64,000 bases of DNA, taken from positions 24,538-88,537 of the forward strand of contig DATBJR010000049.1 of assembly GCA_036556325.1 (NCBI GenBank), written 5' to 3'. Below are positions 21,969 through 44,917 of the stretch, piece after piece. This stretch comes from Candidatus Limnocylindria bacterium (GTDB lineage Bacteria; Chloroflexota; Limnocylindria; QHBO01). Position 1 is the first letter of the stretch, and each line of letters opens with the position of its first letter. A model generated the notes under the pieces. It was not told the DNA's origin, ran no database searches, and saw nothing but the letters and a program-made list of their open reading frames with translations. The translations under genes were made by a program, and so were the position numbers.

Positions 21969-21983
21969 GGAGGCGAGACGATC

Positions 21984-24832: not shown

Positions 24833-25765
<933 letters not shown>

Positions 25766-25772
25766 TGGACCG

Positions 25773-28684: not shown

Positions 28685-29454
28685 CCCGCGAGTTCATCGT
28701 CCTGGACGATGCGAACGCCGTGGCCACCGCAACCGCAGAACGCCTCATCGCCGCCGGCGAGGAGGCGATCGCGCGCCACGGGCGGTTCTTCCTGGCCCTG
28801 ACGGGCGGCTCCACCCCGCTGATGGTGTGCCCGCTGCTGGTCGTCCCGCCGCTGGTCAACGCCCTGGACTGGTCGAAGGTCGAGTTCTTCTTCGGCGACG
28901 AGCGGGCAGTCCCGTCGCGCCATCCCGAGTCGAACTACAACCTGGCCCGCACTGCGCTGCTCGACTACCTCCCCCGCGTGCGGCCCGGACAGGTGCACCG
29001 CATGCTCGGCGAGGCGGCGGATCTCGACGCGGCCAGCCGTGCCTACGAGGCGCTCATTGCCCGGACGCTCGGGGCGCCACACGGCGCCATCTCCTCCTTC
29101 GATCTGATCTGGCTGGGCATGGGACCCGACGGCCATACCGCCTCCCTCTTCCCCGACACTGCCGCGATGCAGGAGCGGAGCCGCTGGGTCGTTGCCAACT
29201 GGGTGCCGAAGCTGGATGCCTGGCGCATGACCATGACCTACCCACTTCTCAACGCGGCACGCGAGGTGAACTTCGTGGTCACCGGCGCCGACAAGGCGGC
29301 GGCCCTCGCCGCGGTCCGCGATGGCTCCGCAGCGGTGCCCGCCGCCGCAGTCGAGGCCGCTCGCACGGTGTGGTACGTCGATCGGGCCGCGGCCCAACAG
29401 GCCGAGCCCGCAGCATCCACCGGCGAGGCACCCGGCCGCGCGGCGAGCGGCTAG
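28681..29454 (+). CDS. pgl: 6-phosphogluconolactonase
   Basis: LALTGGSTP, FFGDERAVP and LGMGPDGHTASLFP motifs. GTGA overlap with opcA. Confidence 0.85.
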   Translation: MTREFIVLDDANAVATATAERLIAAGEEAIARHGRFFLALTGGSTPLMVCPLLVVPPLVNALDWSKVEFFFGDERAVPSRHPESNYNLARTALLDYLPRVRPGQVHRMLGEAADLDAASRAYEALIARTLGAPHGAISSFDLIWLGMGPDGHTASLFPDTAAMQERSRWVVANWVPKLDAWRMTMTYPLLNAAREVNFVVTGADKAAALAAVRDGSAAVPAAAVEAARTVWYVDRAAAQQAEPAASTGEAPGRAASG

Positions 29455-30602: not shown

Positions 30603-30947
30603 GTGCGGCGGGTCGTCATCGTGGGCCGTGACCTGATTGCCGCGACCCGGATCGCCGATGCTGCCGCGGCCGCCGGCTGCGACGCGGCCCGGGTGGACAC
30701 CCCGGACCAGCTGCCCGACGCATCGGAGATCGGCCTGGCCTTCGTCGACTGGGACGACCGGCAGGCGGACTGGGGCGCCAGCCTGCGGCGCTGGCGGGAC
30801 GCCGCAGACACCCCGGCTCCGCGCCTCCTGCTCTTCGGTTCGCACCGCGACGTGGCCGGTCATCGCGCGGCGCGAGCCAACGGCCTGGGACCGATGCTGG
30901 CGCGCTCGAAGCTGTTCGCATCGTTGCCGTCATTGCTGCGCGAGTGA
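30603..30947 (+). CDS. Stand-alone receiver (REC)-like domain protein with degenerate acidic pocket
   Basis: 114 aa. The pattern aligns by eye with CheY. RVVIVGRD matches beta1. LAFVDWD matches beta3, with an Asp at the phospho-acceptor position (compare CheY FVISDWNMP). LLLFGSH matches the beta4 Ser/Thr. MLARSKLF matches the beta5 Lys. The stop overlaps the first sulfotransferase start. Confidence 0.35.
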   Translation: MRRVVIVGRDLIAATRIADAAAAAGCDAARVDTPDQLPDASEIGLAFVDWDDRQADWGASLRRWRDAADTPAPRLLLFGSHRDVAGHRAARANGLGPMLARSKLFASLPSLLRE

Positions 30948-31864
30948 CGCACCGCGTGGCGCGGGTCCCGGACTTCTTCATCGTCGGCGCCCCGAAGGCC
31001 GGGACGACCGCGATGTACGAGTACCTGCGCGGTCACCCGGACCTGTTCCTGCCCGAGCGCAAGGAGCTGCGGTTCTTCGGCTCCGACCTCGACATTCGCG
31101 ATCGCACGCCGCTGACGACCGAGCAGTACCTCGACTACTTTGCCGATGCGCCGGCGGGCTCGCTGATCGGGACGGCTTATGTCTGGTACCTGTACTCGCG
31201 GTCGGCGGCGCAGGAGATCGCGGCCTTCAGCCCCGGCGCGCGGATCATCGCCATGCTGCGCAACCCGGTCGCCATGCTGCCGGCGCTGCATGCCGAACAC
31301 CTGACGAACGGGAACGAGGACATCCGCGACTTCACGGCCGCGCTCGACGCGGAGCCTGACCGGCGTGCCGGCCGGCGGATTCCGTCCCACGCCCACCTGC
31401 CGCAGGGCCTCTGGTACACCGATGTGCCGCGCTACGCCGAACAGCTCGAGCGGTACTTCGCGGCCTTCGGTCGCGATCGGGTGCGGGTGATCGTCTTCGA
31501 CGACTTCGTGGCGGACACGGCGGCCGTCTACCGCGACACGCTCCGCTTCCTGGGGGTGGACGACGGCTATCGGCCTCCGACCTTCACCGCGGTGAATGCG
31601 AACCGCCGGATCCGGTCCGAGCGCTGGCGCCATTTCCTGGCCCGCCCGCCGGAGCGGCTGCGGATCCTGATCCACCACCTCGTCCCGGCGCGGCTGCGAC
31701 GCGCGGCCTATGAGCGGGCAAAGGAGCTGAACGTCGTGGCGGCGCCCCGGGAACCCCTTCCGCCGGCGACGGCGGAGCGCCTGGCGGCGGCATTTGGTCC
31801 CGAGGTTGCGCACCTTTCCGCACTGCTCCGCCGCGATCTGACCACCCTCTGGCGGAGCAGTTGA
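30944..31864 (+). CDS. Sulfotransferase, Sulfotransfer_1 type (heparan-sulfate NDST/3-OST-like motif pattern)
   Basis: 5'-PSB loop FFIVGAPKAGTTAMYEYLRGHPDLF. 3'-PB segment RIIAMLRNPVAMLPALH. YAEQLERYF...RVRVIVFDDF...TLRFLGV parallels the NDST sulfotransferase domain layout. Confidence 0.8.
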   Translation: MTHRVARVPDFFIVGAPKAGTTAMYEYLRGHPDLFLPERKELRFFGSDLDIRDRTPLTTEQYLDYFADAPAGSLIGTAYVWYLYSRSAAQEIAAFSPGARIIAMLRNPVAMLPALHAEHLTNGNEDIRDFTAALDAEPDRRAGRRIPSHAHLPQGLWYTDVPRYAEQLERYFAAFGRDRVRVIVFDDFVADTAAVYRDTLRFLGVDDGYRPPTFTAVNANRRIRSERWRHFLARPPERLRILIHHLVPARLRRAAYERAKELNVVAAPREPLPPATAERLAAAFGPEVAHLSALLRRDLTTLWRSS

Positions 31865-32001: not shown

Positions 32002-32727
32002 TTGGCCGATACCATCCAGCACCGACGGGAGGCTCTGCAGGCAGCCGCCCTCTCGGCACTCCCGCTGCCCGAGCTGGAGTCGGTTCCCGCGCGACCGGAG
32101 GCCTTGACCGCCGTCCGCAAGCGCGCGGTTGACATCGCCGCCGCCGGGGTGCTGCTGCTCGCGTTCAGTCCCCTGTGGCTGCTCTGCGCCCTGCTCATCA
32201 AGCTGACGTCGCGCGGCCCGGTGATCTTCCGCCAGGAACGCATCGGCGCCGGCCAGCGGCCGTTCACCGTCTACAAATTCCGCACCATGCGGGTCGACAC
32301 ATCGGACGCGATCCACCGCGACTTCGTGACGCGCTACATCCTGGGCTCGCTGAGCCTGGACGCCGGTGCCTCCTACAAGCTGCCACGCGATCATCGGATC
32401 ACCGCGATCGGGCGCATCCTGCGCAAGCTCTCGCTCGACGAGGTGCCGCAGCTCGTCAACGTTCTGCGCGGGGAGATGTCGATCGTCGGGCCGCGGCCGC
32501 CGCTGCGCTACGAGGTGGAGAACTACGAGCCGTGGCAGCTCGGCCGCCTGGCCGTGCGGCCGGGCGTCACCGGCCTCTGGCAGGTGTCCGGCCGCAATCG
32601 GCTCAGCTTCGCGGAGATGTGCGAGCTCGACCTGCAGTACATCCAGTCGTGGAGCCTGCGCAAGGACCTGGCGATCATGGTTCGCACGCCGTGGGTCATG
32701 CTCGTGGACGCGGGAGGTGCCGAATGA
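32002..32727 (+). CDS. Priming phosphoglycosyl transferase (small bacterial sugar transferase, WbaP C-terminal/EpsL-like)
   Basis: PVIFRQERIG..RPFTVYKFRTM and DEVPQLVNVLRGEMSIVGPRPP motifs. One N-terminal TM. TTG 32002 preferred over GTG 31984 because of RBS spacing. Confidence 0.85.
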   Translation: MADTIQHRREALQAAALSALPLPELESVPARPEALTAVRKRAVDIAAAGVLLLAFSPLWLLCALLIKLTSRGPVIFRQERIGAGQRPFTVYKFRTMRVDTSDAIHRDFVTRYILGSLSLDAGASYKLPRDHRITAIGRILRKLSLDEVPQLVNVLRGEMSIVGPRPPLRYEVENYEPWQLGRLAVRPGVTGLWQVSGRNRLSFAEMCELDLQYIQSWSLRKDLAIMVRTPWVMLVDAGGAE

Positions 32728-33824
32728 GCGGCATCGTGCGCGCGGGCGTCATCGGCTGCGGCTACTGGGGCCCCAACCTCATCCGCAACTTCGCGCACCA
32801 CGATGACGCCACCGTGGCCATGGTGGCTGACGCGGTGCTCGAACGGGCCCAGCGGGTGGCGCGCATGTACAACGTGCCAGTGGCCACCACCGACGCCATG
32901 GACATCATCTCGTCGCCCGACATCGACGTGGTGGTCGTCGCCACCCCGGCTCGCACCCACGCGCCGCTGGCCAAGGCCGCCATCGAAGCGGGCAAGCATG
33001 TCCTGATCATGAAGCCGATGACGACGTCGGTCGAGGATGCAGAGGAGCTCGTCGCACTCGCCGAGCGCCGGGGCGTCCTGGTGGCCGTGGATCACACGTT
33101 CGTCTACACCGGTGCGGTGCGGATGATGCGCGACCTGGTGGAGAGCGGCGCCCTGGGCGAGATCTTCTACGTGGACAGCGTGCGCATCAACCTGGGTGTC
33201 TTCCAGTCGGACGTGAACGTCATCTGGGACCTGGCGCCGCACGACGTCAGCATCATCGACTACGTTCTCGGCGGCATCCTGCCGACGCAGGTCAGCGCGT
33301 TCGGCGCGGCGCATGCCGGCAGCCGGCGCGAGAACATCGCCTACCTGACCATGCGCTACGGTCCGAACGTGGTCGGTCACGTCCACGTGAACTGGCTCGC
33401 GCCGGCCAAGATCCGCCGCACGATCGTCGGTGGCTCGAAGCAGATGATCGTCTGGGACGACATGCAGCCGTCGGAGAAGCTGCTGATCTACGACAAGGGC
33501 GTGACCATCGCGCCGGATGATGATCCGGAGAAGGTCTACGAGGAGCTCGTGTCGTATCGCTCCGGCGACGTGCTGGCGCCCCGGCTCGATGACCGCGAGG
33601 CGCTGTCGGTCGAGGTGGACGAGGTGATCCGCTGCATCCGCCAGGGCGGCACGCCGATCTCCGACGGATCCGCCGGGCTGCGTGCCGTTCGCGTGCTCGA
33701 GGCGGCAGCCCGATCCGCGCGCGACGGGTCCCATCCCGTCGAGCTTGACGGCGGAAACCCGAATGCCGTCGTGCCGCTGCGGATCGTTCCCGAAACCGAG
33801 GCCCGGGCCGCATCGGCCAAGTAG
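32724..33824 (+). CDS. Gfo/Idh/MocA family NAD(P)-dependent sugar(-nucleotide) oxidoreductase
   Basis: VRAGVIGCGYWGPNLIRNF Rossmann motif. HVLIMKPM (EKP-like). ATGA overlap with the upstream gene. 366 aa. Confidence 0.85.
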   Translation: MSGIVRAGVIGCGYWGPNLIRNFAHHDDATVAMVADAVLERAQRVARMYNVPVATTDAMDIISSPDIDVVVVATPARTHAPLAKAAIEAGKHVLIMKPMTTSVEDAEELVALAERRGVLVAVDHTFVYTGAVRMMRDLVESGALGEIFYVDSVRINLGVFQSDVNVIWDLAPHDVSIIDYVLGGILPTQVSAFGAAHAGSRRENIAYLTMRYGPNVVGHVHVNWLAPAKIRRTIVGGSKQMIVWDDMQPSEKLLIYDKGVTIAPDDDPEKVYEELVSYRSGDVLAPRLDDREALSVEVDEVIRCIRQGGTPISDGSAGLRAVRVLEAAARSARDGSHPVELDGGNPNAVVPLRIVPETEARAASAK

Positions 33825-33902: not shown

Positions 33903-35012
33903 GTGGAGCTACGAACCCTCTTCCACATCGTCACCAGCCGCTGGTGGCTGGTGCTGCCGATCTTCGTGCTGACGCTTGCCGCCGCGATCGGGTTGACCAT
34001 CGTGCAGCAGCCGCTGTACAGCGCGTCATCCACGTTGGTCGTGGCGCCGTCGGTGACGGACCAGAACACGCTCGACGTCATCTCGCTGCTGTCCCGGCAG
34101 TCGGAGATCAGCGACACCTACGCCCAGATCGGCTCCAGCCGAACGGTGCAGGAGGCCGCCGCCAAGCAGCTCAGCCTGAGCGCGGCGGATCGGGCCGAGC
34201 TGCAGCTGGAGAGCGTCCTGGTCAGCGGCACGACGCTGCTCGAGATCACGGCCACCTCCCCGAACCCGGAGATCGCCGCCGATTACGCCAATGCTGTCTC
34301 GCAGCAGCTGGCGAGCTACGTGAACGCGCACTATGGCGTCTTTTCGGTCAGCGCCCTTGATCCGGCCGGCATTCCGAGCCGTCCCGTGTCGCCCGACGTT
34401 CCGCTCAACCTGGCGCTCGGCGTCGCCGGCGGGCTGGTGCTTGGCGTCGGCCTGGCGCTGGTCGCACACCTCGTCCAGCCGCAGGCCCGGGCGGGGCTGC
34501 GCGATATCGTCGATCCCGAGACCTGGGCCTTCAACGACTCGTACTTCGCCTACCGGCTCGCCCAGGAGATGAACCGCAGCACGCGCAGCCGGCAGACAAC
34601 CGCGGTGGCGCTCATCGACGTCAACCACGAGAACGCGCTCGACGACCTGATGCCCCGCGTCCGGACCGAGGCGTTCCGTCGGATCGCGACCCTGCTGGAC
34701 AGTCACGTCCGACCGGAGGACATCGTGGCGCGCCTGTACGGCAGCGTGTTCGGGATCGTCATGCCGGACACCAACGAGGAGCAGGCGGTGGCCATCGTCG
34801 AGGGCCTGCGCAGCCGGCTGGCGGGCCCCGCCTTCGGCACGACCGCGAACGGCGTCCCGGCCCATGCCAATCCGGCCGCCGGCGTGGTCGAATACCGCGA
34901 GGGATCGGGTGACGTGATGCAGCACGCACAGAGCGCGCTGCGAGCAGCCAAGGAAGGCCCCATCGGGCGAACAGAGGCGTTCTCGGCACTGTCGGTCCAG
35001 CCCGGGACCTGA
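33903..35012 (+). CDS. Polysaccharide co-polymerase (Wzz/PCP) fused to a degenerate GGDEF domain with retained RxxD I-site
   Basis: TM1 (aa 13-33), a ~135-aa external Wzz-like segment, then TM2 (aa 168-190). Residues ~204-360 align along their length with PleD-type GGDEF domains. The active site reads YGSVF (aa 279-283) instead of GG(D/E)EF. RPED (aa 270-273) sits at the canonical I-site distance. Confidence 0.75.
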   Translation: MELRTLFHIVTSRWWLVLPIFVLTLAAAIGLTIVQQPLYSASSTLVVAPSVTDQNTLDVISLLSRQSEISDTYAQIGSSRTVQEAAAKQLSLSAADRAELQLESVLVSGTTLLEITATSPNPEIAADYANAVSQQLASYVNAHYGVFSVSALDPAGIPSRPVSPDVPLNLALGVAGGLVLGVGLALVAHLVQPQARAGLRDIVDPETWAFNDSYFAYRLAQEMNRSTRSRQTTAVALIDVNHENALDDLMPRVRTEAFRRIATLLDSHVRPEDIVARLYGSVFGIVMPDTNEEQAVAIVEGLRSRLAGPAFGTTANGVPAHANPAAGVVEYREGSGDVMQHAQSALRAAKEGPIGRTEAFSALSVQPGT

Positions 35013-35014
35013 CG

Positions 35015-36562
35015 ATGGTCGACCGCCATGTGGTCCTGGCCGCCAAGGGCGGCGGGATGGTGTTCGCTGGGCGCCTTTTCGTGTGGGGCACGCGCTTCGG
35101 CATGGCCGTGCTCCTGGCGCGCCAGATGGGCGCGGACAGCTACGGGCTCTACAACGTCACCCTGACCATCGCCACCCTCGGTTCGGCGTTCTCGGTCATC
35201 GGCCTCGACTCCGCGCTGATTCGCTACGTGGCGGTCTATTCGCGGCGCATGGACCGCTTGGGCGTGCTCGGCACGCTGCGGGTCGGGATCGGCTTACCCA
35301 TGCTGGTGAGCGGCGGCGCGGCGCTCATCCTGCTGCTCCTGGCCGCGCCGGCGGCGCGCCTGGCGGGAGACGTCCGTTTGGAGCCCCTGATCCGGATCGG
35401 CGCGGTGCTGGTGCCGGCCATGGTGTCGAACTCGCTGCTGGCGGCGACCCTGCAGGGCGCCCAGCGCATCGGCTGGGCGGTGCTGGCCGAGCAGTTCGCG
35501 CAGCCGACGGTGCGCCTGGCGATCCTGCTCGTGCTCACCGTCATCGGCATGACCCCCGAGGGTGCGGTCATGGCCTCGACCCTGGCCACGCTGGCGGCGA
35601 CGGCGCTGCTGCTGTGGTTCGTCCAGCGCCAGATCTCGCTGGAGGGCATCGCCGGCGAGGTCCGCGCCGAACCGGGCACGATGCTCCGCTTCTCGCTGCC
35701 GGTGTACTTCTCGAACCTGGTCAACACCTTCGGCGGCAACCTGCAGACGCTGCTGCTCGGCGCCATGGCCTCGATGGCCAAGGCCGGCGTCTTCGGCATC
35801 GCCAACCAGGTGATGCTGGTGGGCGCGATCTTCCACTCGGCGGTCGTGCAGGCCGCCATGCCGATCTTCGCCGAGCTCCAGGACTCTGAAGACCGCAGCC
35901 GCCTCAACGCGCTGTATCGCACCACGTCGAAATGGACGTTCACCCTCAACCTGCCGTTCTTCCTGCTCGCCGTCCTCATGCCGGAGGCGCTGCTCGGGAT
36001 CTTCGGCAGCGACTTCACGAGCGGCGCGACCGCACTCACCATCCTGGCCTTCGCGTCCCTCACCAATGCCGCCACCGGCACCTCTGGCGCCATCCTGGAC
36101 ATGACCGGGCACACCAGCGTCAAGCTCGTCAACTCGACCGTGTCGGTGGGGCTGGCCATCGTCCTGAACCTGCTCCTGATTCCCTCCCTGGGTGTCACGG
36201 GCGCGGCGATCGCCTCGCTCGGATCGGTGGCCTCGGTCAACCTGCTGCGTGTGGGCGAGGTGGCCTGGCTCGTGCACGTCGGCCCCTACGACCGCAGCTG
36301 GGTCAAGCCCGTGATCGCGGGTATTGCCGCCGCCACGGTGGGATGGGCCCTGTTGCTCGGCCTGCAGAACGTCGCATCCCTGCTGGTGCGCAGCGGGGTG
36401 GCAGCGCTCGGCCTGGCGGCGACCTACGTGCTCGTGTTGCTCGTCCTGCGGCTCAGTGACGACGATCGGATCATCGTGTCGCGTGCGGCCCGCAAGTTCA
36501 CCCGGCGGCGGGGAGGTCCGGCGGGCCTGGCGCAGGCCAGCCCCGGCCGCGAGCCGACATGA
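35015..36562 (+). CDS. wzx: Wzx-type oligosaccharide flippase (polysaccharide biosynthesis protein, MOP superfamily)
   Basis: 515 aa with about 14 hydrophobic helices. Position is between the PCP and modification genes. Composition is typical of Wzx/RfbX-like proteins. Confidence 0.8.
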   Translation: MVDRHVVLAAKGGGMVFAGRLFVWGTRFGMAVLLARQMGADSYGLYNVTLTIATLGSAFSVIGLDSALIRYVAVYSRRMDRLGVLGTLRVGIGLPMLVSGGAALILLLLAAPAARLAGDVRLEPLIRIGAVLVPAMVSNSLLAATLQGAQRIGWAVLAEQFAQPTVRLAILLVLTVIGMTPEGAVMASTLATLAATALLLWFVQRQISLEGIAGEVRAEPGTMLRFSLPVYFSNLVNTFGGNLQTLLLGAMASMAKAGVFGIANQVMLVGAIFHSAVVQAAMPIFAELQDSEDRSRLNALYRTTSKWTFTLNLPFFLLAVLMPEALLGIFGSDFTSGATALTILAFASLTNAATGTSGAILDMTGHTSVKLVNSTVSVGLAIVLNLLLIPSLGVTGAAIASLGSVASVNLLRVGEVAWLVHVGPYDRSWVKPVIAGIAAATVGWALLLGLQNVASLLVRSGVAALGLAATYVLVLLVLRLSDDDRIIVSRAARKFTRRRGGPAGLAQASPGREPT

Positions 36563-38112
36563 CGGCGGCCGAATCCACGCGGCGGGAGATGCATCCTGCC
36601 TTTCCCGCCGACGCCCTGGCCCTGACTCGCCAGGTGTTCGGCGCGCTGAACGGCGCCGAGGTGCGGTACTGCCACTGGAAGAGCACGACCGCCCTGGCGC
36701 TGGGCCTGGCCGGTCGGACCGATCTCGACCTGCTGGTCGACCGAGAAGCCGCCGCCGTCTTCGGTGCGACCGTCCGGGCCGCCGGATTCAAGCCGTTCAT
36801 CTCGCATCCCAGCCGGCGCTACGTCGGCGTCGAGGACTGGCTTGGCCACGACACGGCGAGCGGACGGCTGGTCCACCTCCACGTCTACTACCGCCTGGTG
36901 CTCGGCGAGGACTATGTGAAGAACCACGTGCTGCCGATCGAGAAGGCGGTCCTTGACGACGTGGTCCTGCGCGACGGCGTCAAGGTGCCGGCGCCCGCCA
37001 CGGAGCTCGTCATCCTCGTCGTCCGGGCGCTGCTGAAGTACCGTCGCACCGATGCCGCCAAGGACGCCCTGCGGCTCGGGCGGCGCGGTGGCGTCCCGCC
37101 GAACGTGCGTCGCGAAGTGCAGGACCTCTCCGAGCGCGTCACGGCCGCAGAGCTGCGGGCCGCCGCGCAGCGGCTGATGCCGCAGCTGCCGCCGGCAGTC
37201 TTCACTGACTTCGTCGACGCGCTCCGCTCCGACCATCGCAACGCGGCAGCCCTGTTGCGCCTGCGGGGCGTCGCGCGACGCGCGCTGCGCGGCTTCGAGC
37301 GGCTTCCGGCGCACCGCGCCCTGGCCATCTCCGTGAGTGCGCGGCTGCAGCGCGCCCCCGGACTGCGGCGCGTGCTGCGCCCGCAATCGAAGGCGGACCT
37401 GCGGCGCAAGTCCTCCGCTGCCGGCGGCCTGACGGTGGCGCTCATCGGCCCCGATGGCGCGGGCAAGACGACGGTGATCGACGAGGTCGTGCGCTGGCTT
37501 GGTTGGCGCCTCAGCCTGCGGACCTCGTATCTCGGGACTGCACGGCCCTCGACCTCGACGGCGGCCGTGCAGGTGCTGAGCCGATACGCGCGGCGCCTCG
37601 CTCGCCGTCGCGAGGCAGGAGGGCGCGCCCCTTCCGGGTCGCTCGACCGCGTCGCCAGGCTGCTGGCAGCCACGCGCTACCTGGCCGAGGCACGCGACCG
37701 GGCCCGCCGCGCGCGCGAGGGACGCCGCCTGGCCGCGAACGGTACGCTGGTCCTCTTCGACCGCTATCCGTTGCCGTGGGTCAGGCTGGCCAATCGGCCG
37801 GTCGACGGGCCGCGGATCGCCGAGCTGCAGGAAGCCCGCGGCCGGGGCCTGCTCGGGATGCTGCAGCGGCGGGAGGAGGCCACCTACGCGGCCATGCCGG
37901 CCCCGGACCTGGTCATCCTGCTTGCCGTCGACCCCGAGGTGGCACTGGCCCGCAAGGGCAACCAGGACCGTGATGCGATCGTGGCCAAGGCGCGTGCCGT
38001 CCAGGAGGCCGCGGCCGGCGCGGATCGCGATGGGGTGGTGGTGGTCGATGCTGGCCAGCCGCTCGATACCGTCGTCGGCCAGGTCGAGGCGGCCATCTGG
38101 CAGCGGCTCTGA
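36559..38112 (+). CDS. Two-domain protein: NTP_transf_5-like nucleotidyltransferase-fold domain + thymidylate-kinase-like P-loop domain
   Basis: N-terminal part has YCHWKST...GRTDLDLLVD...VHLHVYY (polymerase-beta-like DxD pattern). C-terminal part has P-loop ALIGPDGAGKTT (aa 294-305), LVLFDRYP (DRY-like) and DLVILLAVDPEVALARK. ATGA overlap with wzx. Confidence 0.6.
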   Translation: MTAAESTRREMHPAFPADALALTRQVFGALNGAEVRYCHWKSTTALALGLAGRTDLDLLVDREAAAVFGATVRAAGFKPFISHPSRRYVGVEDWLGHDTASGRLVHLHVYYRLVLGEDYVKNHVLPIEKAVLDDVVLRDGVKVPAPATELVILVVRALLKYRRTDAAKDALRLGRRGGVPPNVRREVQDLSERVTAAELRAAAQRLMPQLPPAVFTDFVDALRSDHRNAAALLRLRGVARRALRGFERLPAHRALAISVSARLQRAPGLRRVLRPQSKADLRRKSSAAGGLTVALIGPDGAGKTTVIDEVVRWLGWRLSLRTSYLGTARPSTSTAAVQVLSRYARRLARRREAGGRAPSGSLDRVARLLAATRYLAEARDRARRAREGRRLAANGTLVLFDRYPLPWVRLANRPVDGPRIAELQEARGRGLLGMLQRREEATYAAMPAPDLVILLAVDPEVALARKGNQDRDAIVAKARAVQEAAAGADRDGVVVVDAGQPLDTVVGQVEAAIWQRL

Positions 38113-39875
38113 TGATCATCGAGCTGGCCGGCCCGGTCGGGGCCGGTAAATCGGCGGTTGCCCAGGGGCTGCCGGAGGCGCTGCGCGCCCGCGGGATCGC
38201 TGCGAGCAACCTCCACGAGATCGCGCGGCTCAACCGCCCACGAACGTGGCTATGGAGCACGTGGTTCGCGGTTCGCCATCCTCGCCTGACCTGGGTGGCC
38301 TGGCGAGCGGTGTCGGGGGCGCCGATCCCGTGGTGGCATCGGCGGCTCATCTTTGGCCTGACCGTGGGCGTGGGCGGTCGGATCGCGTACGCGCGGCGAC
38401 GGGTCCCTCGCGACCACATCGTGCTCGTTGACGAGGGACTGGTGCATCGGGCCGTGAACCTGTTCAGCTGGTACGGGCGCCCGCCGGAGCGCGCCGTCCG
38501 GCGCTACGTGGCGCTGGTGCCGCTGCCCGACGCCGTCATCCACGTCGACACCGATCCCGAGGCCGCCCGACGCCGCGTGCTGGCGCGTGGCCTGCCGCGC
38601 CGCCTGGTGGGTCGCTCGGAAACGGACGTCGCCGCGTTCGTGGGGCGAGCCCGGGACGTGGTGACGACGGCCATCGCGGCGTTGCAGCACCGCCCCGGAG
38701 CGACGGTGATCAAGGTGACCAACCGGCAATCGCTGCGGCGCTCGATCAGCAACGCTGCGCGCTCGACGAGCCGGCTCGTCACCGACGCCAGCCCCGGCCC
38801 GGGCAACCTGGTGCTAAGGCCGCGTTTCCCGATCGTTGCGCGACCGGACCGGGCGCTTGCCCGGCTTCGAATCCGGCGCTCGGGGGGCATCCCGGCCTCG
38901 CAGCTCGCCGCGGTCCTGGATCGCTACGGGCTGCACGCGACCGGCCGGCCTCGCGTCCTCTCGGCCCCGCGAGCGCGGGGCGCCACCGTCCGCGTCAGGA
39001 CGGCCGACGGCGAGGTCGTCGTCAAGCGCTATAAGCCGAATGTCGAGCCGTCGGTCCTGGCGATCGAGCACGCCGTCCTGGCCGCGCTGGCGGCGGACGA
39101 CTTCCCGGCCCCGCGGCTGCGAACGGCCCTGGACGGCACCTCGGGGGTGAGCCTGGACGGAGCGTGCTTCGCGGTGTCGGACGCCATCGGTGGATACCGC
39201 CACCCGCACGAGCTGGTCATGGCTCGCACCGATCGCCGCCAGCTCGAGGTGATTGCTGCACGCCTCCTCGCCAGGCTGCACGCGGCGCTGGAGGCCCTTG
39301 ACGTCCCGCCCTCCGCGACGCTCGGCTTTGCCGGCCGGGACGGTCCGCGGGTGCGCGACGTCGCCTGGTACACCGATCGGCTGGCGGATGCCCCTGCGCC
39401 CCGGCGCGTCCGCGCGTGGGTGCATGGCGCGCTGTGGGAGCTGTACGAGCGATTCCAGGCCGAGGGGCTGCCCACCACGGTGGTGCATGGCGACTACGGG
39501 CCGTACAACCTGCTCATCCGGCCCGGTCGCGTGCCGGTCGTGGTCGACTTCGAGCTCGCGCGCCGCGACTGGCGCCTGGTTGACCTGGCGACCGGCATCG
39601 GCTGGTTCGCGCAGCGGCGTCGAACGTTCGACGCCGCCGCCGGGCGCCGGTTCCTCGAGGCCTACCGCCAGGCCAGCGCCATCAGGGACGACGAGCTGCA
39701 GCGGCTGCCCCAGGTCGCTGCGTTCCTGGCGCTGCAGCGCGCCGTCATCGCCTGGTCGCGAACCGCCGAGGGGGGCCTGCTCGATTGGGACGCCGAGGCT
39801 CGCTGGCGCATCGTCGCGGCCGAGGACCTGCTTGCCGGGCGCCACCCGCTGAACGCGGTGCTGCGCCGATGGTGA
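38112..39875 (+). CDS. Two-domain protein: P-loop NTPase/kinase-like domain + aminoglycoside-phosphotransferase (APH/choline-kinase)-fold kinase domain
   Basis: Walker A ELAGPVGAGKS (aa 4-14) and Walker B-like IVLVDEG. C-terminal part has VVVKRYK (ATP lysine), catalytic VVHGDYGPYNLL (aa 457-468) and VVDFELA (DFE metal-binding motif). TGATG junction with the upstream gene. Confidence 0.7.
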   Translation: MIIELAGPVGAGKSAVAQGLPEALRARGIAASNLHEIARLNRPRTWLWSTWFAVRHPRLTWVAWRAVSGAPIPWWHRRLIFGLTVGVGGRIAYARRRVPRDHIVLVDEGLVHRAVNLFSWYGRPPERAVRRYVALVPLPDAVIHVDTDPEAARRRVLARGLPRRLVGRSETDVAAFVGRARDVVTTAIAALQHRPGATVIKVTNRQSLRRSISNAARSTSRLVTDASPGPGNLVLRPRFPIVARPDRALARLRIRRSGGIPASQLAAVLDRYGLHATGRPRVLSAPRARGATVRVRTADGEVVVKRYKPNVEPSVLAIEHAVLAALAADDFPAPRLRTALDGTSGVSLDGACFAVSDAIGGYRHPHELVMARTDRRQLEVIAARLLARLHAALEALDVPPSATLGFAGRDGPRVRDVAWYTDRLADAPAPRRVRAWVHGALWELYERFQAEGLPTTVVHGDYGPYNLLIRPGRVPVVVDFELARRDWRLVDLATGIGWFAQRRRTFDAAAGRRFLEAYRQASAIRDDELQRLPQVAAFLALQRAVIAWSRTAEGGLLDWDAEARWRIVAAEDLLAGRHPLNAVLRRW

Positions 39876-40879
39876 CCGACGGAGGTCCGATCTACATCGG
39901 CGGCCCGGATCGCTGCGGCAAGACGCTCGTCGCCGCGCTCCTCGGATCCCACAGCCGCATCGCCATTCCGATCGTCGGCTCCAACCTGTGGACCTACTTC
40001 GACGGCCAGTACGGCGATCTGGCCGATGACCGTAACCTCGACCGCTGCCTCGACGCGCTGGGACGATACAAGCACGCGCGGTTCCTGGGGCTTGACCTGC
40101 CGCGCCTGCGCGAGGAGCTCCGCGCCGGAGTGCCGAGCTACGCGAACCTGTTTGCGCTCGTCCATCGGCATTTCGCCGAGCGCGCCGGTAAGCCGCGCTG
40201 GGGTGACCAGAGCGGCCTGGTGGAGCGGTACGCGGACAAGATCTTCGCCGCGCTGCCGGACGTCCGCTTCATCCACATGGTCCGTGACCCGCGCGATCGC
40301 TACGAGGGCTCGCTGGCCTACTTTCCGACCGCGCGCGGCCGTGCCGGAGCCGCGGTCGCGCGCTGGCGCTACTCGGTCGACCTCGGCGAACGGAACCTTC
40401 GGCGCTGGCCGGATCGATACCGGCTGGTCCGCTATGAGGATCTCGTCCACAGCCCCGCCGAGGTCGTCGCCGAGCTGTGCGAGTTCATCGGCGAGCGGTT
40501 CGAGCCGGCGATGATGGACGTTCCGGACGCACCGACCTACCGGGCCAAGCTGCTCGCCGGCGCGGGTGGCGGCCCCCTCATCACGGCGGGGCACATCGGT
40601 GACTACCGGGGCCGCATCCCGCCGCACGAGCTGGCGTTCATGCAGGGCCGGCTCCGCGCAAGGATGCTCCGACACGGGTACCGGCCGGATGCCATCCCGA
40701 TGTCGGCGAGCGAGCGCGCCAGGTACCGGCTGGCCCAGTGGCCGGGCATGGCGGCACGCATGATCGCCTGGGATGTCATCGAGAGGATCCAGCATCGGCT
40801 GCCGGGATTGGTGGGCCGCCGCCCACCAGCCTCAAAGCTCGTTGACCCGGCGCAACACTACCGGGTGGCTGGTGAGTGA
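39869..40879 (+). CDS. Sulfotransferase (Sulfotransfer_3-like, subfamily A)
   Basis: PSB loop IYIGGPDRCGKTLVAALL. RFIHMVRDPRDRYEGSL. Paralogous by eye to 45863-46840 and 46847-47701. The ATG overlaps the upstream stop. Confidence 0.8.
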   Translation: MVTDGGPIYIGGPDRCGKTLVAALLGSHSRIAIPIVGSNLWTYFDGQYGDLADDRNLDRCLDALGRYKHARFLGLDLPRLREELRAGVPSYANLFALVHRHFAERAGKPRWGDQSGLVERYADKIFAALPDVRFIHMVRDPRDRYEGSLAYFPTARGRAGAAVARWRYSVDLGERNLRRWPDRYRLVRYEDLVHSPAEVVAELCEFIGERFEPAMMDVPDAPTYRAKLLAGAGGGPLITAGHIGDYRGRIPPHELAFMQGRLRARMLRHGYRPDAIPMSASERARYRLAQWPGMAARMIAWDVIERIQHRLPGLVGRRPPASKLVDPAQHYRVAGE

Positions 40880-40903: not shown

Positions 40904-40946
40904 GCCTCGATAGTCCCATTGTGCCGTGGTACCTGAGGGGAGTCTT

Positions 40947-42839
40947 GTGTCCCGAGCCCTATCCGTCCTCGTCTCGCTGGCGCTCGTCGGCGCCGTGCTC
41001 GTTGCCACGCCGGCCGCCACCGGGCAGTCACGCGCAGCCGGCTGGGGGTTCATCCGTCTCGAGCACATCCTGGAGGCGCATGACCTCGGCATCGTGAAGC
41101 CGGGCCCCCTGGCCTGGGACGCAGGCGCCAGCGCGCTGGAGATCACCGACCGCGTCACCGGCGCGGGCAAGCTGGTCACCACCCGCGGGGCCGCGCACGG
41201 CAACCTGCCGCGCCTCCAGGCGCCCCATGGGCGCTCGCTCTCGGCGACCGATCCGTCCAGCGGCCACCTCTTCACGTTGGACCTGCGGAACGGCGTCCTG
41301 GTGGAGGCCTCGGCCGGCGGCCAAATACTCTCGCAGCGCAACGTGGCCAACTTCAGGCTCCAGGGCGTGGAAGGGATGACCGTCGCGCCGACCTCGGATA
41401 CCACCGATCCCAGCAGCTTCTCGAGCCTCTACGTCTCGGTGGCGAATGCCTCTGACGGCAGCTCGGCTACCGGACCCGGCGTGCTGGAGCTGGCCCTGTC
41501 GGCGCAGCCGATCTCGGCGCTCGTTTCCAGCGTTCCCGACAACGTGGGGCACCTGATCAAGACCATTGACACCGTCGGGCCCAACTGGAATCCGTTCAGC
41601 CCCGATCCGTCCGGCCTCGCCTACGACACCACCAGGGGCACCCTCGTGGTCGATGACGGCGAGATCGAGGAGGAGCAGGTCAACGATTACCCCTATCCCG
41701 GCCACAACGTGTGGGACGTCAACCCGGTCACCGGCGCCGGCACGGGGATCATGGACACCACGACAGCCAGTCCGAACAACAACGAGCCGGTCGGCGCCGC
41801 GTATGACAAGGTCCGAGACGAGCTCTATCTCTCGCGGGACGGCTCCAAGTCCCGGGTGTGGGCCTACCGGCGCGCCGGCAACCAGTGGGTCGGGCGTGAC
41901 AGCATCGACCTGGCCGCCTTCGGGCTGGGCGACGCCGAAGGCCTGGCGTTCGCCAACAACCAGCTCTTCGTCGCCGATGGGTCGGACAAGGACGTATGGG
42001 TCATCGGTGCCGGGACCGATGGGATCGTCGCCACCAGCGACGACGTGGTGGTCCGGCACTTCGACACCGCCTCGTTCGGGATCTCGAACCCGGAGGGCAT
42101 CGGCGTCGACTTCAACACCGGCAACCTGTGGATCCTGAGCCACAACGGCGCCGAAGGAATGATCGAAACCACGCAGTCCGGCACGCTGGTGAGCACCACC
42201 CATTACGACTTCGCCACCAACAACCCCGGCGGCGTGGACATCGGGCCCTCGTCCTCGACCACGGACGCGTCGAACGTGATGAGCGCCTGGATCGCGCAGC
42301 GCGGCGTCGACAACAACACCGATCCGAGCGAGAAGGACGGCAAGATCTTCGAGGTCGCGATCCAGACCGGCTCTCCGCCGCCGCCGCCGGGCGACCTCGT
42401 GCAGAACGGCGATTTCGAGAGCGGGACGGTCGGCACCGCGCCCCCGTCCTGGACGACGAATACGAACTTCACCGCATCGAACGCGGTCGTGCACGGAGGC
42501 AGCCTCTCGGGTCGCCACTTCTCGAACGCGGACGCCGGCTACAAGATCGAGCAGACGGTGGCCGCCAGCCCGGGGACCTACGACTTCAGCGCCTGGGCCA
42601 ACCCGGTCGTGACCTCGGACGCCTTCAGCGTCGCCTTCAAGGTGCAATGGCGCACGGACACCAAGGCCCTGACGACGGTGACGGTGGGCAAGGTGAACAA
42701 GCAGACGACTGCAGGCTGGAAGCAGTTCACGCAGACCCTCACCGCGCCGGCGGGGACCACCAAGGTCAAGATCTCCATGGTCGTCGGCAGCCTGAAGACC
42801 ACCGTCTACGTGGACGACATCAGCCTGACCGCGCCGTGA
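40947..42839 (+). CDS. Secreted protein: signal peptide + beta-propeller-like repeats + C-terminal CBM4_9/galactose-binding-like carbohydrate-binding module
   Basis: Signal peptide SRALSVLVSLALVGAVLVATPAATGQS. Recurring PSGLAYD / AEGLAF / PEGIGVD blade-like motifs. PPPPP linker. C-terminal NGDFESG...GWKQF...VYVDDISL is typical of CBM4_9-type jelly rolls. Confidence 0.7.
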   Translation: MSRALSVLVSLALVGAVLVATPAATGQSRAAGWGFIRLEHILEAHDLGIVKPGPLAWDAGASALEITDRVTGAGKLVTTRGAAHGNLPRLQAPHGRSLSATDPSSGHLFTLDLRNGVLVEASAGGQILSQRNVANFRLQGVEGMTVAPTSDTTDPSSFSSLYVSVANASDGSSATGPGVLELALSAQPISALVSSVPDNVGHLIKTIDTVGPNWNPFSPDPSGLAYDTTRGTLVVDDGEIEEEQVNDYPYPGHNVWDVNPVTGAGTGIMDTTTASPNNNEPVGAAYDKVRDELYLSRDGSKSRVWAYRRAGNQWVGRDSIDLAAFGLGDAEGLAFANNQLFVADGSDKDVWVIGAGTDGIVATSDDVVVRHFDTASFGISNPEGIGVDFNTGNLWILSHNGAEGMIETTQSGTLVSTTHYDFATNNPGGVDIGPSSSTTDASNVMSAWIAQRGVDNNTDPSEKDGKIFEVAIQTGSPPPPPGDLVQNGDFESGTVGTAPPSWTTNTNFTASNAVVHGGSLSGRHFSNADAGYKIEQTVAASPGTYDFSAWANPVVTSDAFSVAFKVQWRTDTKALTTVTVGKVNKQTTAGWKQFTQTLTAPAGTTKVKISMVVGSLKTTVYVDDISLTAP

Positions 42840-42858: not shown

Positions 42859-43767
42859 GTGACCACCGTGCCAGCGTGGCCGGATACGGCCAGGGAGGCG
42901 CTGCGCGGCACGCCGGTCCAGACTGCCTGGCGCTCGCTCGTCTTCCGTGCCGGTGCGCGCCGCGAGCGTCAGGCCCTGGACGGGGTGCGAACGTACTGCC
43001 TCTTCCTGGGGCACGCTCGCAGCGGTCACAGCGTCATCGGAGCGCTGCTGGACGCCCATCGGCAGATCGCCATCTCGGACGAGTTCGACGCCCTGCGCTA
43101 CCTCGAGGCGGGCTTCACGCGCGGCCAGCTGCTCTACGGGTCGCTGGAGATTGCGCGGCGCCAGGCGGCCAACCTGCGCCGCAAGCAGGGTCGGGGGGGC
43201 ACGACCTACTCCTACCACGTGCCCGATGGCTGGCAGGGTCGCGCCGATGACCTGCGTGTGGTGGGCGACAGTCGCGCCGGCTGGACGACGCGCCGCCTGG
43301 CGGCCGATCCGGGGCTGCTCGACCGGCTGCAGCAGCGGATGGCGCCCAGCGAGCTGCGCTTCGTGCACGTCGTCCGCAACCCCTACGACAACATCGCGAC
43401 GATGATGCTGCGCGGCGAGCGCAGCTTCGAGAGCGCGTTCGGCCAGTACGCCGCCAACTGCGAGGCGATCGGGCCGCTCAGCGAGCGCATCGGCGCGGAG
43501 CGGGTGCTGCAGGTGCGCCACGAGGCGCTGATCGCCGATCCACGCGCGACCCTGGCCGAGCTGTGCATCTTCCTGGGCGTCGAGGCGGACGAACCGTACC
43601 TCGCCGCTGCGTCAGCGCAGGTCTACCGATCGCCGGCGCGCAGCCGCCGCGAGATCGAATGGCGGCCTGACGACGAGCGGCGGGTGGACGAGCTGATCCG
43701 GCGCTTCGCCTTCCTGGCCGGCTACGGGCGGGACGACGAGCCGGAGGCCGCGGCCGCATCGGGATAG
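42859..43767 (+). CDS. Sulfotransferase family protein (subfamily C)
   Basis: PSB-like loop LFLGHARSGHSVIGALLDAH. RFVHVVRNPYDNIATMM as the 3'-PB-like segment. 302 aa. Confidence 0.7.
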   Translation: MTTVPAWPDTAREALRGTPVQTAWRSLVFRAGARRERQALDGVRTYCLFLGHARSGHSVIGALLDAHRQIAISDEFDALRYLEAGFTRGQLLYGSLEIARRQAANLRRKQGRGGTTYSYHVPDGWQGRADDLRVVGDSRAGWTTRRLAADPGLLDRLQQRMAPSELRFVHVVRNPYDNIATMMLRGERSFESAFGQYAANCEAIGPLSERIGAERVLQVRHEALIADPRATLAELCIFLGVEADEPYLAAASAQVYRSPARSRREIEWRPDDERRVDELIRRFAFLAGYGRDDEPEAAAASG

Positions 43768-44696
43768 AGCCGGCCGAAGACCGGCTGCGCGGCACGTACG
43801 ATGGCCTGAGCATCCCCGTGGTCGAGTGCGGCACGCCACCGCTCGTCCAAGCGCACGTCGGACGGCGCCGACAGCCGCATCTGGTTTCCCAGCATGTGCT
43901 GCTCCTCGCCGATCGGCCGCAGCTCCGCGTCCGGGTCGACGCCGACGAAGCCGAAGGCAGCGCGCAGCGTTCCGCTGACGTCAGCGCACAGGTCCTCGTA
44001 GCGGATCCGCAGCTGACGCTCCCGCGGCAGCTCGCGCAGCTGTTGCTCGATGCTGTCGTTGGTCCGCGCCCACTCGCTGGCAATGCGCGGCAGCGGGTCG
44101 CTGCGCTTTCCGCGACGCAGGGTCGACTCCACCACGCCGCGGACGTCGCGGACGAGGTGGATGACGCGCGGCCGGACGGGCAGATAGCGTTCGAGGTACC
44201 GGATGCGCAGCCGCTCCTTGGAGGCATCGACGAAGACGGATGCCTCGGTCAGGTCCATCACCGCATTGGCCAGCGTCCAGCTGCGGGCGCCGACCTGGCG
44301 CATGTCGGCGGCCACGCCCAGCGGCGCGAGCGCCCGGTCCCGCAGCCGCTCGAGCGCCGGCCAGCGCAGGGAGCGCGCCTGGATGCGAGCCAGCGGCCCG
44401 TGGTGCGTCGTGTCGAAGCCGAGCTCGAAATCGGCCAGGTCCAGGTTGCCCATGCCCTTCGCTGCCACCCGCTCGCGAAGGCGCGACCAGAAGTCGCAGT
44501 CCACCATCCGCCGGCCGCAGGAGCAGCGGAAGGTATCCATCTGCCCGGCGCGCCGGCGGCCGGACACGTCGCTGATGGTCGCCACGGCCGGATGGCTGGC
44601 CAGCAGGAAGGAGAGCAGCGTCGAGCCGGAGTAGGGGCTCGAGGCCAGGAACACGTACCCGCGGCGTTCGCCGTCGTGCGCCGGTGCTCGCGTCAT
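43722..44696 (-). CDS. Sulfotransferase family protein (subfamily C, with Cys-rich insert)
   Basis: Internal ATG 44696. YVFLASSPYSGSTLLSFLLASHP PSB loop. CSCGRRMVDCDFW cysteine motif. VIHLVRDVRGVVES. Confidence 0.75.
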   Translation of the reverse strand: MTRAPAHDGERRGYVFLASSPYSGSTLLSFLLASHPAVATISDVSGRRRAGQMDTFRCSCGRRMVDCDFWSRLRERVAAKGMGNLDLADFELGFDTTHHGPLARIQARSLRWPALERLRDRALAPLGVAADMRQVGARSWTLANAVMDLTEASVFVDASKERLRIRYLERYLPVRPRVIHLVRDVRGVVESTLRRGKRSDPLPRIASEWARTNDSIEQQLRELPRERQLRIRYEDLCADVSGTLRAAFGFVGVDPDAELRPIGEEQHMLGNQMRLSAPSDVRLDERWRAALDHGDAQAIVRAAQPVFGRLYPDAAAASGSSSRP

Positions 44697-44728
44697 GCGA
44701 CCGGGGCGACTCCGGAACAAGCGCGGTT

Positions 44729-44746
44729 GTCGCGCCTGGGCGCGAC
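44729..44746. promoter_or_regulatory. Perfect palindrome GTCGCGCC-TG-GGCGCGAC in the divergent sulfotransferase intergenic region
   Basis: Read directly. 8-bp arms, centred about 40 nt upstream of the minus-strand gene start (44696). Confidence 0.25.
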
Positions 44747-44917
44747 GGCATACAGTTCGCGGACCGCCCAGCGCCGGGCGTGCACGGCGGCGCGGAGGGG
44801 CTCCACGGACTCGCATGGGAGACGACGGCGGACGATCATGGGCACTCCTGCAGCAGGCGGCGTGGCTGGCGGAGCCGGAGGGTACCACCGCGTCCGCGCG
44901 ATCGCCGGTGAGCCCCG

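Follow-up and report, generated by a model that had tools for sequence, protein, structure and literature searches.

What might two coupled multi-domain genes contribute to a bacterial polysaccharide locus in which they stand between a flippase gene and a sulfotransferase gene? The question is posed by a 64,000-nucleotide stretch of DNA from a Candidatus Limnocylindria bacterium (GenBank assembly GCA_036556325.1, contig DATBJR010000049.1, positions 24,538 to 88,537 of the forward strand), referred to here as the window, whose first letter is position 1. Wzx/Wzy systems are the main route to bacterial capsules, O-antigens and exopolysaccharides (EPS), and their accessory enzymes set the chemistry of the polymer. 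Judged by sequence and gene order, the two open reading frames (ORFs) under study represent the window's version of a widespread module of cytoplasmic enzymes whose genes are linked to the flippase gene wzx in Wzx/Wzy loci. We tentatively propose that the module tailors the lipid-linked repeat unit in the cytoplasm, by phosphoryl or nucleotidyl modification, before it is flipped.

36559..38112, + strand: ORF1, 517 aa, ATG start, third-position GC (GC3) 0.87
38112..39875, + strand: ORF2, 587 aa, ATG start, GC3 0.85

Both ORFs are real coding genes. The ORF listing places them on the strand, at the coordinates and with the ATG starts that a preliminary description of this DNA had given, and their translations carry the motifs quoted there at the expected nucleotide positions. 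Against a GC content of ~70% for the window, their third-position bias is that of real genes, and homologues span the full length of both (E down to 0). The junction sequences also bear out three overlaps with neighbouring starts and stops: the wzx stop TGA (36560-36562) is overlapped by the ORF1 ATG at 36559 (ATGA); the ORF1 stop TGA (38110-38112) has one base in common with the ORF2 ATG (38112-38114; TGATG); and the ATG of the downstream sulfotransferase, at 39869, stands 4 nt ahead of the ORF2 stop at 39873-39875 (ATGGTGA). Proteins identical to ORF1 and ORF2 are recorded in metagenome assemblies, and the nearest named relatives belong to Candidatus Limnocylindria (Chloroflexota). ORF1 yielded 357 homologues, almost all full length, and ORF2 yielded 54, mainly of 586-603 aa. 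Residue conservation was read from alignments of 71 ORF1 and 40 ORF2 homologues, and throughout these the residues of the quoted motifs are invariant. In metagenome annotation (JGI), relatives of ORF1 go by 'thymidylate kinase' and those of ORF2 by 'Ser/Thr protein kinase RdoA (MazF antagonist)', labels that reflect matches to parts of domains and probably mislead.

The AlphaFold2 (AF2) model of ORF1 (pLDDT 91, pTM 0.86) has three parts, and that of ORF2 (pLDDT 89.4) accommodates two domains:

36616..36993, + strand: ORF1 aa 20-145, polymerase-beta-type nucleotidyltransferase core, distantly NTP_transf_5-like
36994..37383, + strand: ORF1 aa 146-275, all-helical domain (AF2 secondary structure)
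37399..38109, + strand: ORF1 aa 281-517, thymidylate-kinase-like P-loop kinase domain, five-stranded in the AF2 model
38112..38786, + strand: ORF2 aa 1-225, P-loop domain like those of nucleoside monophosphate (NMP) and deoxynucleoside kinases; a stand-alone protein of ~240-265 aa in other phyla
38817..39872, + strand: ORF2 aa 236-587, APH/choline-kinase-fold kinase

The N-terminal domain of ORF1 carries the motif GRTDLDLLVD at aa 52-61. Its residues W40-K41-S42, followed after 12 positions by D55-L-D57-L, match the nucleotidyltransferase pattern hG[GS]-x9-13-Dh[DE]h with K in place of the usual G, and W40, K41, S42, G52, D55, D57, H106 and H108 are invariant among the 71 sequences. The AF2 model gives the order alpha-beta-alpha-beta-alpha-beta, with the DxD on strand 2 (56-60) after a helix at 43-50 and following the K-S turn, as in polymerase-beta nucleotidyltransferases. 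PF14907 (NTP_transf_5) was matched by 26 of the 71 homologues (best E 1.8e-6), while one member of the family reached 19.8 bits against a gathering cutoff of 31.2, and the ORF1 of the window had no Pfam match to PF14907 even at E<=1. The domain is thus, on sequence evidence, a distant relative of NTP_transf_5 rather than a Pfam member, so that the NTP_transf_5-like assignment in the preliminary description stands for the family and falls away for the window ORF1 taken singly. A profile of the domain had no match to any PDB sequence, and a whole-model Foldseek search of ORF1 against PDB and BFVD was filled by matches of thymidylate and deoxynucleoside kinases to the C-terminal domain. Profile searches with the N-terminal domain alone returned only the same ~500-aa architecture, together with shorter and probably partial entries, and no informative new domain partners; a literature search on PF14907 and NTP_transf_5 found nothing relevant. 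The helical domain that follows had no family match, and conserves the largely charged residues E149, R156, K160, Y161, D169, E186 and R248.

For the C-terminal domain of ORF1, the evidence points to a kinase of thymidylate kinase (TMK) type, as had been suggested from its P-loop. This loop (GPDGAGKTT, aa 296-304, nt 37444-37470) and the FDRYP segment (aa 400-404) contribute G297, D299, G300, G302, K303, T305, D401 and R402, all invariant in the 71 sequences, and Y403, which is invariant or nearly so; D401-R402-Y403 aligns with the DRF motif of the Aquifex TMK. The top 50 PDB matches in the Foldseek search were nearly all thymidylate kinases (best 4.3e-8), and viral dTMP and deoxynucleoside kinases were matched in addition. 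Pfam returned a partial Thymidylate_kin match (aa 442-506, E 1.7e-8, profile positions 111-182 of 185) and otherwise weak P-loop families. With thymidylate kinases (PF02223 / TIGR00041) ORF1 shares its fold and P-loop, as well as DR[YF] and the helices of the C-terminus. However, the profile of its kinase domain is collinear with TMK only at the P-loop (GxDGxGK[ST]T), at DR[YF] and in the C-terminal third, and in the AF2 model the usual NMP(dTMP)-binding segment is replaced by a 60-residue helical hairpin (aa 332-393). ORF1 also scores 31.0 bits against a cutoff of 83.25 for the dTMP-kinase equivalog TIGR00041 and 16.5 against 193 for NF005923, is fused to a nucleotidyltransferase domain, and lies in a polysaccharide locus rather than a nucleotide-metabolism operon. 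The domain is therefore TMK-like, yet ORF1 is not a true dTMP kinase, an identity that score and architecture rule out. Sphingomonads carry the TMK-like domain alone, without the nucleotidyltransferase, as two tandem genes (L024, 9656-11527, Sphingomonas gellani; L026, 351-2003), which indicates that the ORF1-type kinase domain also occurs as an independent, duplicated unit.

ORF2 opens with a second P-loop domain, with a Walker A motif (GPVGAGKS, aa 7-14), the segment IVLVDEG (aa 103-109) containing D107-x-G109 after strand 3, and an Arg-rich lid (R155/R159); G7, G10, G12, K13, D107, G109, R155 and R159 are invariant among the 40 sequences. Its profile matches TMK as well as APS (adenosine 5'-phosphosulfate) kinase weakly and in the P-loop region only, and aligned with the ORF1 kinase domain at an hhalign probability of 94.6%. 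Kinship of the P-loop domains with the sulfotransferases was also considered, and was rejected at hhalign probabilities of <=1%.

The second half of ORF2 scores above threshold for Pfam APH (PF01636; 86.6 bits against a cutoff of 23.2, E 2.9e-24) and carries HGDYGPYN at aa 459-466 (nt 39486-39509) and DFE at aa 479-481. E319, H459, G460, D461, N466 and D479 are invariant, and K305 is retained in >=90% of the 40 sequences. The top Foldseek matches (E ~1e-10 to 1e-8), for the most part O-kinases of small molecules, were homoserine kinase II, YihE, NahK, AmiN, aminopropanol kinase, YtaA and choline kinases, with 2ppq, 1zyl, 4ocj and 6sui at E ~1e-10. ORF2 shares with such APH-fold kinases (homoserine kinase II 2ppq, NahK, AmiN, LicA/choline kinases) the fold, the beta3 Lys, the alphaC Glu, HxDxxxxN and DFE. 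It differs from them in its low identity (12-20%), in its fused N-terminal P-loop and in falling below the cutoff of every equivalog; for the NCBIfam models of homoserine kinase type II (ThrB_alt), SrkA and CotS, the scores and cutoffs were 40.7/271, 40.6/255.9, 34.2/194 and 34.1/172.7. The second P-loop and the intact APH-fold kinase that the preliminary description had read in ORF2 are thus upheld by invariant motifs, the kinase also by Pfam and by fold. As catalytic residues are kept in all four domains of ORF1 and ORF2, these are probably active enzymes.

Proper alignment of the homologues thus removed the concern that these residues might be absent, and the domain searches assigned neither protein to a well-characterised unrelated function, all equivalogs lying far below cutoff, in keeping with the earlier view that the fusions are unlike characterised enzymes. 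Of the pair, earlier labelled as two putative kinases, ORF1 is better called a nucleotidyltransferase-kinase fusion than simply a kinase.

Comparison of gene neighbourhoods indicated which parts of the pair travel together. Loci of the window type, at 36-50% identity, keep the same locus type, overlapping stops and starts included. They typically encode a DHH/DHHA1 phosphatase, ATP sulfurylase, APS kinase and a PF01663 phosphodiesterase, and also carry Bac_transf, a GFO-type oxidoreductase, a Wzz-GGDEF fusion, Wzx, ORF1, ORF2, Wzy, 3-10 sulfotransferases and family 4 glycosyltransferases (GT4s). In two loci (L001 and L023), ORF2 is split into a P-loop protein of 265 aa and an APH protein of 365 aa. 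A scan of species-representative genomes for relatives in other phyla identified full-length ORF1 homologues (27-38% identity) in Acidobacteriota, Gemmatimonadales, Actinomycetes (among them Modestobacter and Blastococcus, both in culture), delta-proteobacteria, Pseudolabrys, Methylococcales and Sphingobium mellinum; the proteobacterial classes represented are delta, alpha and gamma. The majority of these cross-phylum loci also hold genes for Wzx, Wzy, Wzz, GT4 or sugar transferases, so that conservation with glycan loci, a point on which the preliminary description could have failed, is strong and crosses phyla. At least 14 of 19 such loci have a P-loop ORF of ~240 aa, homologous to the ORF2 N-terminal domain, close to the ORF1 homologue and usually directly adjoining it, and wzx adjoins ORF1 homologues in L003, L005, L010, L014, L031, L034 and L039.

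The last of these, the single hit of a plasmid search, is on plasmid pTAD1 of the alphaproteobacterium Chelatococcus daeguensis (NZ_CP018096.1, 101294-104995). There, within an EPS locus of the XrtA/PEP-CTERM type, RefSeq annotates in a run with overlapping stops and starts a tyrosine-kinase polysaccharide co-polymerase (PCP; Wzc), the ORF1 homologue (WP_071924605.1, 511 aa, 'hypothetical protein'), its P-loop partner (WP_145979828.1, 255 aa, 'AAA family ATPase') and a flippase.

Many loci contain ORF1 and the P-loop protein with neither an APH kinase nor sulfotransferases, and the APH domain was seen only in sulfotransferase-rich loci of the window type. The conserved unit is ORF1 together with the P-loop protein that makes up the first half of ORF2, a unit that goes with wzx and not with sulfotransferases; the APH kinase is a separable add-on that tracks sulfotransferase-rich loci, and the ORF2 of the window fuses one of each. 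Co-occurrence with sulfotransferases, which had been raised for both architectures, accordingly holds for the one that bears the APH domain, whereas the core of ORF1 and P-loop protein follows wzx instead.

An exhaustive profile search gave 6,074, 3,100 and 1,675 representative clusters (counted at 50% identity) at E<=1e-3, 1e-10 and 1e-30, respectively, nearly all of 480-530 aa. Rare ORF1 fusions, found in L036 (157-3321) and in proteins P0386, P0354 and P0250, have as their partner Wzx (1,054 aa), a glycosyltransferase of family GT2 (726 aa) or another P-loop domain (889 aa).

The analysis shows which domains are present, that their catalytic motifs are intact, that the genes are translationally coupled, that synteny extends across phyla and that fusions exist; how might the module work? 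We infer its substrate, the order of its steps and its product. On the cytoplasmic side of the membrane it would act upon the repeat unit linked to undecaprenyl diphosphate, where the kinase domains would phosphorylate sugar hydroxyls with ATP and the nucleotidyltransferase-fold domain would then cap the phosphate with a nucleotidyl or glycosyl group. Wzx, inherited along with the module, would next flip the completed and by then highly anionic unit, and Wzy would polymerise it. The eight sulfotransferases of the locus must act in the cytoplasm too, because their donor 3'-phosphoadenosine 5'-phosphosulfate (PAPS) is cytoplasmic; and since PAPS and ATP are both found there, wzx is translationally coupled to these genes and in one case forms a fusion with a homologue, ATP- or NTP-dependent tailoring just before flipping is the most economical reading. 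Wzx flippases prefer cognate, fully decorated units, a preference that would explain the joint inheritance of wzx and the module.

A narrower form of this proposal, which we regard as doubtful, is that ORF1 and its P-loop partner build a phosphodiester-linked substituent, nucleotide-derived or glycosyl-phosphate, on the lipid-linked unit. They would then constitute an unrecognised class of tailoring enzyme, with a transferase of nucleotidyltransferase rather than glycosyltransferase fold and a modification that forms part of what Wzx recognises; as a variant, they would make a PAPS-like 3'-phosphonucleotide donor for some of the 'sulfotransferase' paralogues.

Known systems offer partial likenesses. 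WaaP, WbdD and KdkA, which act on lipopolysaccharide and O-antigen, are kinase-fold enzymes of the cytoplasmic face that phosphorylate lipid-linked sugars during assembly, although they belong to other subfamilies, lack nucleotidyltransferase or TMK-like partners and, for WbdD, terminate chains in ABC-transporter pathways. LicA is a precedent for an APH-fold kinase in glycan decoration. In Actinoplanes missouriensis, the kinase-like WpsI is encoded with sulfotransferases in a putative Wzx/Wzy cluster for sulfated EPS, wps-1, and is required for sporangia to form normally: a strain deleted for it shows the abnormal-sporangium defect of a strain that lacks the entire cluster (PMC13390465); WpsI and ORF2 are compared here by description only, and no ORF1-like partner is described in wps-1. 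The closest working analogy to the fused nucleotidyltransferase-kinase comes from the pseudomycoidin cluster of Bacillus pseudomycoides, in which the kinase PsmK phosphorylates a peptide serine and PsmN, an 'uncharacterised nucleotidyltransferase' with an essential DxD, adds hexose to the phosphate (PMC6993621); related lasso-peptide clusters also carry sulfotransferases (PMC8498205). Here too, a kinase is followed by nucleotidyltransferase-fold decoration of the phosphate, and this was the only characterised system of apparently comparable logic that turned up. It differs in its ribosomal-peptide substrate, in PsmK being a homologue of HPr kinase and not TMK-like, and in the two activities residing in separate proteins.

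Several points weigh against tailoring of the lipid-linked unit. The function of family members is predicted from sequence, context and models. A link of PsmN to PF14907 is presumed, and PsmN is likened to the ORF1 N-terminal domain by its published description. The nucleotidyltransferase fold is assigned with no direct structural match, the TMK domain dominating both fold searches. Kinases of TMK type normally phosphorylate nucleotides and not glycans, and the synthesis or salvage of a donor would fit at least as well. YihE, a protein kinase, ranks second in the Foldseek list for the APH domain, which leaves room for a protein substrate. A single contig assembled from a metagenome supplies the Wzx::ORF1 fusion, which a frameshift or an error of assembly could have produced. 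At one locus (L037), a block of a TMK-like gene lacking the nucleotidyltransferase, ORF2, a sulfotransferase, an NHL/PKD gene and a further sulfotransferase has no Wzx or Wzy visible within 19 kb; another sulfated locus (L038) has the APH kinase and no ORF1, so the two halves are not strictly interdependent.

The locus in the window spans ~30.9 kb to 61 kb (30944-61013) and contains eight sulfotransferases. Pfam on both neighbours places the module between a flippase and a sulfotransferase in a glycan locus, as had been described.

30944-31864, 39869-40879, 42859-43767 and 44918-45853, + strand: Sulfotransfer_3 genes (Pfam)
43722-44888, 45863-46840, 46847-47803 and 50438-51346, - strand: Sulfotransfer_3 genes (Pfam)
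33903..35012, + strand: Wzz chain-length determinant fused to GGDEF (Pfam Wzz, GNVR, GGDEF)
35015..36562, + strand: Wzx (MOP) flippase (Pfam Polysacc_synt, Polysacc_synt_3), with the ATGA overlap with ORF1
39869..40879, + strand: sulfotransferase whose start overlaps the ORF2 stop (Sulfotransfer_3, 2.2e-22)
40926..42839, + strand: secreted NHL-type beta-propeller protein (NHL and NTTRR-F1 hits, signal-peptide-like N-terminus)
42859..43767, + strand: sulfotransferase closing the block ORF1-ORF2-sulfotransferase-NHL-sulfotransferase (Pfam Sulfotransfer_3)
49200-50450, 51491-52720 and 59808-61013: three GT4 glycosyltransferases
52717-53760, + strand: GT-B-like gene, ~347 aa, GC3 0.93, between a GT4 gene and the ORF at 54002-55675; GT-B look judged by eye

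The locus also encodes a Bac_transf priming transferase, a GFO-type sugar oxidoreductase, Wzy, an epimerase/dehydratase and two UDP-sugar dehydrogenases; the 64-kb window has neither an ATP sulfurylase nor an APS kinase. The ORF at 32175-33824 probably starts near 32724, its GFO/IDH/MocA domain beginning at residue 189 and its homologue in L031 being 367 aa long. The GGDEF signature of the Wzz fusion is degenerate, with YGSVF for GG[DE]EF, and an RxxD (RPED) lies five residues upstream (RPED-IVARL-YGSVF), which suggests that a PelD-like c-di-GMP receptor, and not a cyclase, stands where a tyrosine-kinase domain is usual; L001, L031, L034 and L038 also have the Wzz-GGDEF fusion. The NHL-type gene is flanked by sulfotransferases, and the C-terminal domain of its product (NTTRR-F1) is carbohydrate-binding-like. 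It is a conserved neighbour of the module, and homologues lie, in distant lineages, near those of ORF1 or ORF2 in L037 (10536-12026), L038 (11881-13407), L023 (11723-13066), L004 (8012-8842) and L013. The reading frame of the GT-B-like gene runs open through the adjoining GT4 gene and was hence not listed separately under a 0.85 GC3 filter; PADLOC gave no hit for it. The ORF at 54002-55675 (+ strand) encodes a 557-aa protein with no Pfam or PADLOC match, and a homologue (32% identity) lies in a Methylococcales locus (L016, 14136-15287), ~3 kb from the ORF1 homologue. A + strand ORF at 43818-44921 was rejected as a gene, having no family match and being a shadow of the minus-strand sulfotransferase at 43722-44888, which has the coding-type GC profile. 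Directly upstream of the polysaccharide locus lies a complete pentose-phosphate operon (20016-29454) for transketolase, transaldolase, a PGI-like protein, 6-phosphogluconate dehydrogenase, glucose-6-phosphate dehydrogenase, OpcA and 6-phosphogluconolactonase. A literature search on Limnocylindria sulfotransferases found nothing relevant.

Tailoring, donor synthesis and regulation were the three functions put forward in the preliminary description, and the analysis refuted none of them. Among the alternatives, the one that survives best, though we consider it unlikely, is the synthesis or salvage of an activated donor: like NahK, AmgK and LicA, the APH domain would phosphorylate an amino alcohol or a free sugar, the nucleotidyltransferase would turn the phosphate ester into a nucleotide-activated donor, the NMP-kinase-like domains would regenerate NTP or add a 3'-phosphate, and a transferase of the locus would use the product. 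In Campylobacter, the O-methyl-phosphoramidate pathway obtains a PAPS-like donor by adding a 3'-phosphate in this way. Kinases of small molecules and of anomeric sugars are among the closest structural matches to the APH domain (NahK, choline/ethanolamine, aminopropanol and homoserine kinase II), both P-loop domains are of the nucleotide-kinase (TMK/deoxynucleoside kinase) lineage, and the many paralogous 'sulfotransferases' have presumed donors, all of which would suit such a pathway. It sits less well with the many loci that have ORF1 and the P-loop protein and lack both the APH kinase and sulfotransferases, or with the fusions to Wzx and GT2, which suggest action at a membrane-bound assembly line. 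The known sugar-1-phosphate nucleotidylyltransferases differ in fold from polymerase-beta nucleotidyltransferases, which also counts against it, and related loci already encode the PAPS pathway in its canonical form.

For the same reason, an analogue of PAPS synthase, in which the nucleotidyltransferase would stand in for ATP sulfurylase and the P-loop for APS kinase, was rejected: canonical ATP sulfurylase, APS kinase and a DHH-type phosphatase stand alongside ORF1 and ORF2 in related loci, and there was no match to the APS_kinase profile. Neither ORF had a Pfam hit to PF01583 (APS_kinase), and the profile matches of ORF2 to solved APS kinases are limited to aa 3-58 at E 4.5e-4 or weaker, so the earlier statement that neither protein resembles CysC holds, with the canonical APS kinase a separate protein in related loci.

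Somewhat less probable than a donor pathway is that the P-loop and APH domains are ATPases or protein kinases that control or energise Wzx, Wzy/Wzz or the c-di-GMP-sensing Wzz-GGDEF, the glycan itself being left unmodified. In favour of a regulator are the tight linkage of the module to wzx and the PCP gene and the structural matches of the APH domain, the best of which include CotS/YtaA and protein kinases of the YihE/RdoA type; window-type loci moreover lack a bacterial tyrosine kinase (BY-kinase) and have Wzz fused to a degenerate GGDEF. However, the P-loops are of TMK/deoxynucleoside kinase type and not MinD-like, with no Walker A', C-terminal tyrosine cluster or AAA_31/CbiA hit; a true tyrosine-kinase PCP adjoins the module in Chelatococcus, and AAA_31/CbiA proteins neighbour it in other loci. 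An invariant nucleotidyltransferase active site is also hard to reconcile with a pure regulator. These features equally exclude a BY-kinase substitute: the fold is wrong, with no AAA_31/CbiA hit and no tyrosine-rich C-terminus, and a true tyrosine kinase co-occurs, in agreement with the earlier reading that neither protein looks like a BY-kinase. With canonical PAPS enzymes in the loci of relatives and a canonical BY-kinase next to the Chelatococcus module, a replacement of either by the module is unlikely. A part in anti-phage defence was likewise rejected, PADLOC giving only a marginal P-loop match of ORF1 to mad3 (E 2e-4) and none for ORF2.

It is quite improbable that the kinases and flanking sulfotransferases modify a secreted protein, namely the adjacent NHL/PKD beta-propeller protein or a peptide, instead of a polysaccharide. 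The order ORF1-ORF2-sulfotransferase-NHL-sulfotransferase recurs in L037 with no Wzx or Wzy visible within 19 kb, NHL/PKD homologues accompany the module in L004, L013, L023 and L038, and combinations of kinase, nucleotidyltransferase and sulfotransferase are known from lasso-peptide clusters (PMC8498205). At most ORF1 loci, however, an NHL/PKD homologue is lacking, no precursor peptide or maturation machinery was found, and the carbohydrate-binding-like C-terminus of the NHL protein fits an extracellular glycan-processing enzyme of a kind common in EPS loci.

That ORF1 is a housekeeping thymidylate kinase and ORF2 an RdoA/SrkA stress kinase, present in the locus by chance, accords with the JGI names and the partial Thymidylate_kin hit but can be dismissed as extremely improbable given the 31 bits of ORF1 against the dTMP-kinase cutoff of 83.25 with only the P-loop, DRY and C-terminal segments aligning, its 517-aa length with an extra conserved nucleotidyltransferase domain, the SrkA score of 34 bits against a cutoff of 194, and a polysaccharide-locus synteny that is conserved across phyla.

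Taken together, these data delimit a large family with intact active sites, whose genes keep synteny with wzx from Chloroflexota to Alphaproteobacteria and whose public labels are merely 'hypothetical protein', 'thymidylate kinase' or 'RdoA'. Nothing found shows the module to be categorically new, and we regard it as a putative variant of glycan-tailoring enzymology; what is new is its conserved core, ORF1 with a P-loop protein of ~240 aa, which recurs in Wzx/Wzy loci of Chloroflexota, Acidobacteriota, Actinomycetes, Gemmatimonadota and Proteobacteria. A recent statement holds that bacterial sulfated polysaccharides are exclusively cyanobacterial (PMC13390465); the eight-sulfotransferase locus of the window is further evidence that heavily sulfated exopolysaccharides extend beyond cyanobacteria. 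Carriers of the module are in culture, among them Chelatococcus daeguensis TAD1 (on pTAD1), Modestobacter, Blastococcus and Sphingobium mellinum, which makes it experimentally tractable. Finding out which reaction the module catalyses could bring to light a kind of glycan modification that is new, or else something that determines flippase specificity, and if the module does build a phosphodiester substituent or a PAPS-like donor, it would represent a new enzymatic step in the Wzx/Wzy pathway of at least six phyla.

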